Shown piece by piece: positions 711 through 2,740 of a stretch of 4,434 nt of DNA; position 1 is the stretch's first letter, and every line of letters begins with the position of its first letter. Source of the DNA: a virus (taxonomy: Duplodnaviria; Heunggongvirae; Uroviricota; Caudoviricetes); IMG/VR virus record IMGVR_UViG_2541047689_000001, one strand, 5' to 3'. A program made the position numbers and the translations under genes. Below the pieces are notes generated by a model. It did not search any database. It had not been told where the DNA came from and saw only the letters and a program-made list of their open reading frames with translations.

Positions 711-1408
711 TGCAGGATATCCGGCAGGAAACACTGAATGAATGCACCCGTGCGGAGCAGTCGGCCAGCGTGGTGCTCTGGGAAATCGACCTGACAGAGG
801 TCGGTGGAGAACGTTATTTTTTCTGTAATGAGCAGAACGAAAAAGGTGAGCCGGTCACCTGGCAGGGGCGACAGTATCAGCCGTATCCCATTCAGGGGAG
901 CGGTTTTGAACTGAATGGCAAAGGCACCAGTACGCGCCCCACGCTGACGGTTTCTAACCTGTACGGTATGGTCACCGGGATGGCGGAAGATCTGCAGAGT
1001 CTGGTCGGCGGAACGGTGGTCCGGCGTAAGGTTTACGCCCGTTTTCTGGATGCGGTGAACTTCGTCAACGGAAACAGTGACGCCGATCCGGAGCAGGAGG
1101 TAATCAGCCGCTGGCGCATCGAGCAGTGCAGCGAACTGAGCGCGGTGAGTGCCTCCTTTGTACTGTCCACGCCGACGGAAACGGATGGCGCTGTTTTTCC
1201 GGGACGTATCATGCTGGCCAACACCTGCACCTGGACCTATCGCGGTGACGAGTGCGGTTATAGCGGTCCGGCTGTCGCGGATGAATATGACCAGCCGACG
1301 TCCGATATCACGAAGGATAAATGCAGCAAATGCCTGAGCGGCTGTAAGTTTCGCAATAACGTCGGCAACTTTGGCGGCTTCCTTTCCATTAACAAACTTT
1401 CGCAGTAA
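710..1408 (+). CDS. L: Tail tip protein L (232 aa), with a C-terminal cysteine cluster
   Basis: Complete ORF with ATG at 710 (overlapping the M stop, TGATG) and TAA at 1406-1408. The translation (MQDIRQETLNECTRAEQSASVVLWEIDLTEVGGERYFF ...) is recognised as lambda gpL. An AGGTGG Shine-Dalgarno-like sequence sits at 697-702. The C-terminal 60 residues carry cysteines at C173, C182, C205, C208 and C212. Confidence 0.93.
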   Translation: MQDIRQETLNECTRAEQSASVVLWEIDLTEVGGERYFFCNEQNEKGEPVTWQGRQYQPYPIQGSGFELNGKGTSTRPTLTVSNLYGMVTGMAEDLQSLVGGTVVRRKVYARFLDAVNFVNGNSDADPEQEVISRWRIEQCSELSAVSASFVLSTPTETDGAVFPGRIMLANTCTWTYRGDECGYSGPAVADEYDQPTSDITKDKCSKCLSGCKFRNNVGNFGGFLSINKLSQ

Positions 1409-1412
1409 TCCC

Positions 1413-2156
1413 ATGACACAGACAGAATCAGCGATTCTGGCGCACGCCCGGCGATGTGCGCCAGCGGAGTCGTGCGGCTTCGTGGTGAGAACGCCGGAGG
1501 GGGAAAGATATTTTCCCGGCGTGAATATTTCCGGTGAGCCGGAGGCGTATTTCCGTATGTCGCCGGAGGACTGGCTGCGGGCAGAGATGCAGGGTGAGAT
1601 TGTGGCGCTGGTCCACAGCCACCCCGGTGGTCTGCCCTGGCTGAGTGAGGCCGACCGGCGGCTGCAGGTGCAGAGTGATTTGCCGTGGTGGCTGGTCTGC
1701 CGGGGTGAGATTCATAAGTTCCGCTGTGTGCCGCATCTTACCGGGCGGCGCTTTGAGCACGGGGTGACGGACTGTTACACGCTGTTCCGGGATGCTTATC
1801 ATCTGGCGGGGATTGAGATGCCGGATTTTCATCGCGGGGATGACTGGTGGCGTCACGGTCAGAATCTCTATCTGGATAATCTGGAGGCCACAGGGCTGTA
1901 TCAGGTGCCGTTGTCAGCGGCGCAGCCGGGCGATGTGCTGCTGTGCTGTTTTGGTTCATCGGTGCCGAATCATGCCGCCATTTACTGCGGCGACGGCGAG
2001 CTGCTGCACCATATTCCTGAACAACTGAGCAAACGAGAGAGGTATACCGACAAATGGCAGCGACGCACACACTCCCTCTGGCGTCACCGGGCATGGCACG
2101 CATCTGCCTTTACGGGGATTTACAACGATTTGGCCGCCGCATCGACCTTCGTGTGA
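1413..2156 (+). CDS. K: Tail assembly protein K (247 aa from ATG 1413), with JAB/MPN metalloprotease and NlpC/P60 cysteine peptidase motifs
   Basis: The frame is open from the TTG at 1371 (the track start) to the TGA at 2154-2156. The first ATG is at 1413, 5 nt after the L stop. A canonical JAMM motif H68-x-H70-x7-S78-x2-D81 (VHSHPGGLPWLSEAD, nt 1614-1655) is seen directly, with an upstream Glu at E20. An NlpC/P60-like Cys (VTDCY, C121) and His (NHAAIY, H187) follow. The start is uncertain: an internal ATG at 1557 (M49) is preceded by GGAGG at 1541-1545. Confidence 0.85.
   Translation: MTQTESAILAHARRCAPAESCGFVVRTPEGERYFPGVNISGEPEAYFRMSPEDWLRAEMQGEIVALVHSHPGGLPWLSEADRRLQVQSDLPWWLVCRGEIHKFRCVPHLTGRRFEHGVTDCYTLFRDAYHLAGIEMPDFHRGDDWWRHGQNLYLDNLEATGLYQVPLSAAQPGDVLLCCFGSSVPNHAAIYCGDGELLHHIPEQLSKRERYTDKWQRRTHSLWRHRAWHASAFTGIYNDLAAASTFV
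1541..1545 (+). promoter_or_regulatory. Internal Shine-Dalgarno-like GGAGG, 11 nt upstream of the in-frame ATG 1557 inside K
   Basis: GGAGG is seen at 1541-1545. It could drive internal initiation of a shorter K form, or it could simply be the Gly-Gly-encoding sequence it lies in. Confidence 0.3.
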
Positions 2157-2713: not shown

Positions 2714-2740
2714 AAACCGCCTCCGGGCGGTTTTATCGTT
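2714..2740 (+). terminator. GC-rich hairpin followed by a U-rich tract in the I-J intergenic gap; possible weak intrinsic terminator or RNA stability/processing element
   Basis: A perfect 8-bp inverted repeat is seen: AAACCGCC (2714-2721), loop TCCG (2722-2725), GGCGGTTT (2726-2733), followed by TATCGTTTAT. The T-run is interrupted, so terminator strength is doubtful. Confidence 0.3.

Follow-up and report, generated by a model that had tools for sequence, protein, structure and literature searches.

In bacteriophage lambda, the tail-tip genes are arranged in the order M-L-K-I-J, with K and I overlapping by 103 nt, and K itself (NP_040598.1) is given as a protein of 199 aa in the reference genome NC_001416. 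K was listed among the JAMM proteins in 2003 (PMC300881) and was described in 2006 as a JAB+NlpC/P60 protein adjoining the ubiquitin-like I, for which cleavage by K was proposed (PMC1779556). Analysis of virions by cryo-EM and mass spectrometry revealed gpI only as residues 135–223 and did not find gpK, which is needed for tail assembly yet is not in the virion (PMC10721106, PMC12617516). The review of Goulet et al. in 2020 took gpK as 199 residues and detected the peptidase domain only (PMC7291167), and an expression library from 2025 cites NP_040598.1 (PMC12236752). Related folds are known from outside the phages: stand-alone prokaryotic JAMM/MPN+ enzymes cleave ubiquitin-like proteins, and P. 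furiosus JAMM1 (5ld9/5lda), the haloarchaeal desampylase and DSY2949 (2kks) share with K the JAMM fold and the E...HxH...S..D motif at equal spacing. For the C-terminal part of K, the fold and the conserved Cys-His-His are common with E. coli MepS and C. difficile Acd33800; these two are cell-wall hydrolases, whilst K is not known to have a cell-wall role and gpK was not found in virions (PMC10721106). Lambda also possesses genes with dual starts (S107/S105; C/Nu3), in which an in-frame internal ATG follows a Shine-Dalgarno-like motif, as it does in K.

The window analysed here, by which we mean the whole stretch of DNA of 4,434 nt, belongs to a lambdoid phage or prophage and spans its tail-tip block, a lambda-like H'-M-L-K-I-J' cluster: the 3' end of H (up to 384), M (381–710; Pfam match to PF05939), L (710–1408; PF05100), the long form of K (1413..2156; 247 codons plus stop, 744 nt, 28.3 kDa), I (start at 2054 or later, end at 2695; PF06805) and the 5' part of J (2757 onward). 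The M-L-K-I-J order is that of lambda, and so is the overlap between the 3' end of K and the 5' end of I (2054..2156), with I in a different frame; this overlap, the L stop codon, the L-K spacer and all features of K given below lie on the + strand. Prophages in complete E. coli genomes are 98.6% identical to the window, with matches in 4,587 of 5,426 genomes, and the K region exhibits 97–98% identity with phages mEp460, 434, 21 and lambda relatives. A scan for promoters and terminators between 1300 and 2800 returned chance-level matches only. On the basis of the sequence comparisons and structure prediction described below, we consider it about 90% probable that K is translated from ATG 1413 as one 247-residue, 28.3-kDa protein with two peptidase domains, and that Met49 and the GGAGG preceding it are ordinary coding sequence.

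At the junction of the two genes, the L stop codon (TAA, 1406..1408; TAA or TGA in 88/88 close relatives) is followed by a spacer of 4 nt (TCCC, 1409..1412), rather than the 5 nt given in an earlier note on this DNA, and then by the K start codon (ATG, 1413..1415; ATG in 88/88 close relatives). The open reading frame 1413–2156 comprises 247 aa plus a stop codon, as that note had it. It had also described this start as devoid of a strong Shine-Dalgarno sequence: there is indeed no such motif upstream of the spacer, and a search of the 20 nt 5' of 1413 for an AGGAGG-like motif found none. The RNA surrounding ATG 1413 is predicted to be unpaired. Since K has no Shine-Dalgarno sequence of its own, the spacer measures just 4 nt and the RNA at the start is predicted to be accessible, K initiation at ATG 1413 probably proceeds by termination-reinitiation coupling to L, and efficient initiation at this codon, lacking as it does a recognisable Shine-Dalgarno sequence, would depend on this coupling. 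The H/M and M/L junctions likewise have overlapping or abutting stops and starts.

The K frame does not open just after the L stop, as had been supposed, but is already open from 1338 and includes an in-frame TTG at 1371 within L. An ORF with a TTG start (1371..2156) was found, and initiation inside the end of L would give a K of 261 aa with MAASFPLTNFRSNP added upstream of M1. However, the L-K spacer (4–5 nt) shows 1-nt indels among close relatives (TAAATCCC, TAATCCC, TAAACCC), which would break a frame running in from L; the ATG starts of the homologues are collinear with M1, with an in-frame stop a few codons upstream, such that their N-termini align with M1; and the Pfam domain starts at residue 3. 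The TTG start was rejected on the spacer indels and the homologue starts, leaving it next to no probability. Where the end of L could be located in the homologues, the distance between its stop and the start of K is mostly -8 to +12 nt.

Starting at ATG 1413, K contains a JAB/MPN+ (JAMM) metalloprotease domain (residues 3–105; 1419..1727), identified by Pfam (PF14464), AlphaFold2 and Foldseek. The E-x(n)-H-S/T-H-x7-S-x2-D motif is present (E19, H68-S69-H70, S78, D81) and is complete only in the product that starts at 1413. The zinc-site motif H68-S-H70-x7-S78-x2-D81 (1614..1655; codon starts H68 1614, H70 1620, S78 1644 and D81 1653) is as stated in the earlier note, whereas the catalytic Glu is not residue 20 (1470–1472), which is Ser, but E19 (GAG, 1467..1469) within the motif P-x-E-x-C-G. 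The long K scores 51.2 bits against PF14464 Prok-JAB over profile positions 3–113 of 114, compared to a cut-off of 25, and the JAMM signature is far beyond chance; K from M49 reaches 23.9 bits, which lies below the cut-off, and covers profile positions 63–113 only. The sole solved structure that sequence search found for K was the JAB protein 2kks, the alignment to which starts at residue 7 and places E-A-C-G of 2kks on E19-S-C-G, and the desampylase JAMM model of NCBIfam gave a weak full-length match.

An AlphaFold2 model of K built on 52 diverse homologues (pLDDT 97, pTM 0.91) predicts a helix at residues 3–15 and strands at residues 21–27 and 30–36. In a Foldseek search, the N-terminal domain of this model superposed on the whole of the 129-residue PfJAMM1 (5ld9) with a TM score of 0.67 and an rmsd of 2.6 Å over 109 columns, and matches to Rpn11, CSN5 and AMSH were obtained as well. 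Residues 1–48 are thus predicted to be helix 1 and strands 1–2 of the JAMM fold, carrying the general-base Glu, and not a leader. As judged from the model, residues 1–105 would form a complete minimal JAMM domain such as is found in the stand-alone prokaryotic JAMM/MPN+ enzymes; K differs from these in being fused to NlpC/P60 and in belonging to phage tail assembly, and its identity to them is only 20–27%.

The second domain of K is an NlpC/P60 (C40) cysteine peptidase domain (residues 111–224; 1743..2084), with 47.7 bits against Pfam PF00877 (cut-off 23) over profile positions 1–105 of 105, and Foldseek matches this domain to MepS and Acd33800. By analogy with the family, C121 (1773–1775), H187 (1971–1973) and H199 (2007–2009) are candidate catalytic residues; among the 52 diverse homologues, conservation is complete for D120 and H199 and reaches at least 90% for C121 and H187. 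K has the lambdoid TAPK architecture of Iyer et al. (2006): JAB+NlpC/P60, encoded between L and the ubiquitin-like I and upstream of J.

A search of 1.84 billion representative proteins returned 1,645 relatives of K at E<=1e-10, and full-length relatives with 35–60% identity align from query residues 4–10 and from their own residues 3–15. The earlier note had asked whether conservation extends upstream of M49, and it does: in 104 full-length K proteins with <62% identity, residues 1–48 include some of the best-conserved positions of K, with H11 kept in 82%, A12 in 79%, P17 in 88%, E19 in 95%, C21 in 90%, G22 in 97%, N38 in 97% and F47 in 91%. In the 52-sequence alignment, no variation is seen at G22, N38, H68, H70 and D81, with S78 conserved to at least 90%; E19 and HxH are furthermore kept in all 92 distinct K homologues from other viral contigs (25–76% identity), hereafter the other-clade homologues.

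Codon-level constraint, which was likewise put forward as a check, was found in the close relatives, a set of 90 loci with 96–99% protein identity. There is no indel anywhere in K in 87/90 of these loci; the other three come from the lambda reference and from two records in the same state. For codons 2–48 (1416–1556), pS is 0.083 and pN is 0.021 in the K frame, whilst in both other frames of the same stretch pN exceeds pS; this pattern points to frame-specific purifying selection on the first 48 codons. Since the spacer upstream varies by indels whereas K has none, which is the pattern to be expected, the coding sequence appears to begin at 1413.

These observations bear on the classical annotation, in which only the short form would be made and the 144 nt upstream of 1557 would be untranslated and open by chance. 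Such an annotation of K is indeed found in the lambda reference and in some phage records of recent date, but the 48 upstream codons bear the marks of frame-specific purifying selection free of indels, the JAMM residues that distant homologues conserve best lie within them, the Pfam domain needs them in order to pass its threshold, and the annotation itself is explained by one base missing in one record, as described below. We give this alternative, which the comparative data contradict, almost no credence. The long form is instead taken to be the real product because four independent lines agree (domain models, including the Prok-JAB scores, distant conservation, frame-specific selection without indels, and structure prediction), which upholds the proposal that the longer form is needed for a complete JAB/MPN site.

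An alternative that preserves the long form is that two products are made: the 247-aa K and a 199-aa, 23.0-kDa isoform from the internal in-frame ATG (Met49, 1557..1559), the start of the classical lambda annotation, by way of the Shine-Dalgarno-like GGAGG at 1541..1545; such an isoform would have the NlpC/P60 domain and no working JAB domain. The signals are real in the sense that the ATG follows a perfect GGAGG at a distance of 11 nt, as had been noted before, that the pair is kept in 86/88 close relatives and that curated records of lambda hybrids annotate a ribosome-binding site there. Against this, a spacing of 11 nt is longer than is optimal for initiation in E. coli, and GGAGG-N(4-12)-ATG occurs twice in the window, compared to 1.83 occurrences expected from shuffles, with one of the two being the real M start: the internal pair is not statistically notable and is expected by chance. 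The GGAGG is made up by codons Pro43-Glu44-Ala45 (CCG GAG GCG), two further CCGGAGG (Pro-Glu) sites lie within 50 nt (GGAGG at 1496 and 1565), and the motif at 1541–1545 thus appears to be a by-product of the coding sequence.

Retention of the pair in 86/88 relatives is, at such divergence, what amino-acid conservation would be expected to give; the close relatives differ at too few synonymous sites (pS about 0.08) for an excess of synonymous conservation to show at the two or three positions around the internal start. Even so, ATG 1557 is replaced by ATA in L012 and by CTG in L032, both 97–99% identical relatives, and a 76%-identical clade (L128–L147) has Ile at codon 49 and no GGAGG. In the 92 other-clade homologues, Ile occupies codon 49 in 84, against Val in 4, Met in 3 and Leu in 2, with GGAGG before this codon absent in all of them, and of the 104 distant proteins 13% have Met and 61% have Ile at position 49. 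A conserved start codon together with a conserved ribosome-binding site, by which a programmed internal start is recognised, is hence not found among the homologues. According to the AlphaFold2 model, the internal start lies behind strand 2, midway through a compact domain, and a product from M49 would lack helix 1 and strands 1–2 of the JAMM domain; as a weak indication, folding prediction also places the GGAGG at 1541–1545 in the stem of a local hairpin. K differs from S107/S105 and C/Nu3 in the same two respects: beyond its closest relatives the internal start signals are not conserved, and they cut a folded domain in two. The suggestion of a shorter isoform made in the earlier note is not supported by this evidence, and production of two proteins appears improbable to us.

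The same note gave classical lambda K as about 199 aa, beginning at the internal Met, and this is borne out: K in the reference (14276..14875, 199 aa) starts at the equivalent of ATG 1557. The lambda reference K differs from that of the window in being without one G, in being annotated from Met49 and in having no catalytic Glu, whereas resequenced lambda has the intact 247 codons. In an alignment with the window, 434, mEp460 and PhiR47_1, NC_001416 shows a gap of 1 nt, CCGGAGGC-TATTTCCGTATG; the G that is absent from J02459/NC_001416 corresponds to window position 1547..1547, the third base of codon Ala45, and falls between lambda 14266 and 14267. The upstream ATG of the lambda reference (14133) opens an ORF of 76 aa only. 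The 199-residue K of the textbooks arose from this missing base: without it the first 44 codons are no longer in frame, and Met49 becomes the first start available.

Restoring the G to the lambda reference gives a 247-codon ORF, which is identical to window K at 239/247 positions and identical to the ORF of lambda imm434, Lambda_AGU, the lambda of an MG1655 lysogen and the lambda of strain CV601. Three independent lambda genomes carry the G, two of them being of the laboratory type with a split side-tail-fibre gene, and these three genomes share the same left-arm differences to the reference: 138 delG, 14266 +G, 20661 A>G and 22444 A>G. In the lambda example of breseq, '14,266 +G' is listed together with a 1-bp deletion near 139, and both match the corresponding computed differences. 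Literature searches found no published statement of the discrepancy at 14266.

The deletion allele is confined to very few records. A 91-nt probe for the deletion obtained 100% matches only in J02459, NC_001416, OR474059 and OR974322 among 50,697 phage records; at a threshold of at least 99%, there was no match among 3,959 matching E. coli records, and no complete E. coli genome carries the deletion allele. A 33-mer of the deletion allele gave 0 exact matches in metagenome and viral contig collections, compared to at least 120 matches in each of them for the 33-mer of the intact allele. We did not accept OR474059 as independent support for the deletion: this unverified record looks to have been put together in silico, and only known engineered or marker changes set it apart from the reference. 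OR974322, a lambda from a 'cloacal swab', has Sam7 but neither cI857 nor ind1, shows odd ends and keeps the reference state at 14266 and at the other three distinguishing sites.

The missing G may be due to a gel misread in 1982 or to a mutation private to the stock that was sequenced, and the reference state of OR974322 at each of the four sites would fit the latter; in both cases, by these comparisons, a K of 199 aa is a peculiarity of one record. A programmed frameshift that would rescue the reference allele was rejected, as GAG-GCT-ATT offers no slippery sequence and the G carried by the resequenced lambda genomes makes such a frameshift unnecessary. If the missing G were a real mutation, the stock bearing it, which is viable, would have to make do with a split or shortened K, and that phage would depend on ATG 1557, which is a point in favour of two products. 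The lambda clade of E. coli in particular may use GGAGG-ATG (1541–1559) for a JAB-less, 23-kDa NlpC/P60 isoform, and, in a related manner, the 1982 stock may have been viable on a split K (the 76-aa fragment plus the 199-aa form). We regard this as unlikely; were the split K of that stock true, the internal start would work and the JAMM domain would be either dispensable or reassembled from two pieces.

The preferred reading, a single 247-residue K from ATG 1413, is in line with most of current annotation. RefSeq assigns a 744-nt CDS (WP_023146277.1, 247 aa) in a 98.6%-identical E. coli prophage, the NCBI pipeline calls the 247-aa K in thousands of prophages, and the long K is also annotated in mEp460, in the curated record of phage 434 and in one recent lambda record. 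The proteins of this kind named 'C40 family peptidase' (WP_023146277.1; mEp460 YP_007112090.1; 434 UMO75284.1) have the same start and length as K of the window at 97–98.6% DNA identity; the product name covers the C-terminal domain only, and there is otherwise no difference of substance. The 199-aa K persists in NC_001416, in lambda imm434 (with a ribosome-binding site) and in PhiR47_1, the last two of these being so annotated although their frame is intact. The PHROGs family phrog_7305 comprises 76 positions, is matched over its full length by K residues 1–76 and equals in length the truncated 76-aa ORF of the lambda reference. Long-form K is therefore already known, both from mainstream annotation and from the literature of 2003–2006, and its biology is not new.

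Taken together with this literature, K would combine an N-terminal JAMM/MPN+ zinc metalloprotease (E19, H68, H70, S78, D81) with a C-terminal NlpC/P60 cysteine peptidase, and would be an assembly factor that stays out of the virion; in tail-tip assembly, its JAB domain would cut the N-terminal ubiquitin-like domain off I. The most-cited record (NC_001416 / NP_040598) holds in its place a 199-residue K without the catalytic Glu and without a third of the JAMM domain, and newly annotated phages inherit this form, including ones whose frame is intact. The practical value of our findings thus lies in a caution for annotation: a start of the 1413 type is advised whenever K is to be expressed, modelled or mutated.

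Within the K/I overlap, where the end of the tail-assembly gene K and the beginning of the downstream gene I share window positions 2054-2156, selection acts according to the I frame and not the K frame: among close relatives, pS is 0.086 and pN 0.006 when the overlap is read in the I frame, and pS 0.009 and pN 0.033 when it is read in the K frame. The overlap contains three candidate starts for gene I, at 2054, 2093 and 2153, and existing annotations differ in which of these is used: the lambda annotation begins at the equivalent of ATG 2054, RefSeq places the start of I in an E. coli prophage at ATG 2093, and in mEp460 and PV340536 the gene starts at the GTG at 2153. In the long form of I, the first residue covered by the Pfam Lambda_tail_I domain is residue 14, the one encoded by ATG 2093.

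At the other end of gene I, the I-J spacer holds a GC-rich hairpin of 8 bp (AAACCGCC-TCCG-GGCGGTTT, window 2714-2738) that is followed by a T-rich run, with the ribosome-binding site of J just downstream. The predicted folding energy of the 65 nt around this hairpin is -20.9 kcal/mol; the hairpin was absent from the output of the terminator scan, which covered 1300-2800.

For some of the K homologues, fusions to a neighbouring gene are predicted: L-K fusions combine PF05100+PF14464+PF00877, and K-I fusions, a type already noted by Iyer et al. 2006 (PMC1779556), include PF06805. Longer predicted fusions include the homologue proteins P0025, P0032, P0054, P0015 and P0035, and K ORFs of 435 aa are predicted in two viral contigs (L187 and L188). 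The L-K fusions could have originated through single-base indels in the 4-5-nt L-K spacer or through assembly errors. In one close relative (IMGVR_UViG_2537561603_000004), presumably a decaying prophage, codon 60 of K is changed from CAG to TAG, a premature stop.

Comparison with the lambda reference NC_001416 over the left 22.9 kb revealed four changes common to LC730321, OM418626 and PV340536, which are lambda genomes of independent sequencing: 138 delG, 14266 +G, 20661 A>G and 22444 A>G. Either J02459 is in error at these four sites, or the stock that was sequenced carried private mutations there. A further record, OR974322, is entitled "lambda isolate P6/2022/SA", with chicken cloacal swabs given as its source; it equals the lambda reference apart from Sam7 (45352 G>A), a cluster of 5 nt at 45037-45041, a single deletion at 46312 and its last bases, which are scrambled. 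This record resembles lambda DNA of laboratory or control origin more than it does an isolate from the environment.

Residues 1-76 of K match the PHROGs family phrog_7305 (76 positions, "unknown function") along the whole length of the family, and the frameshifted upstream ORF in the lambda reference is likewise 76 aa long. Broken K genes may make up a large part of phrog_7305.
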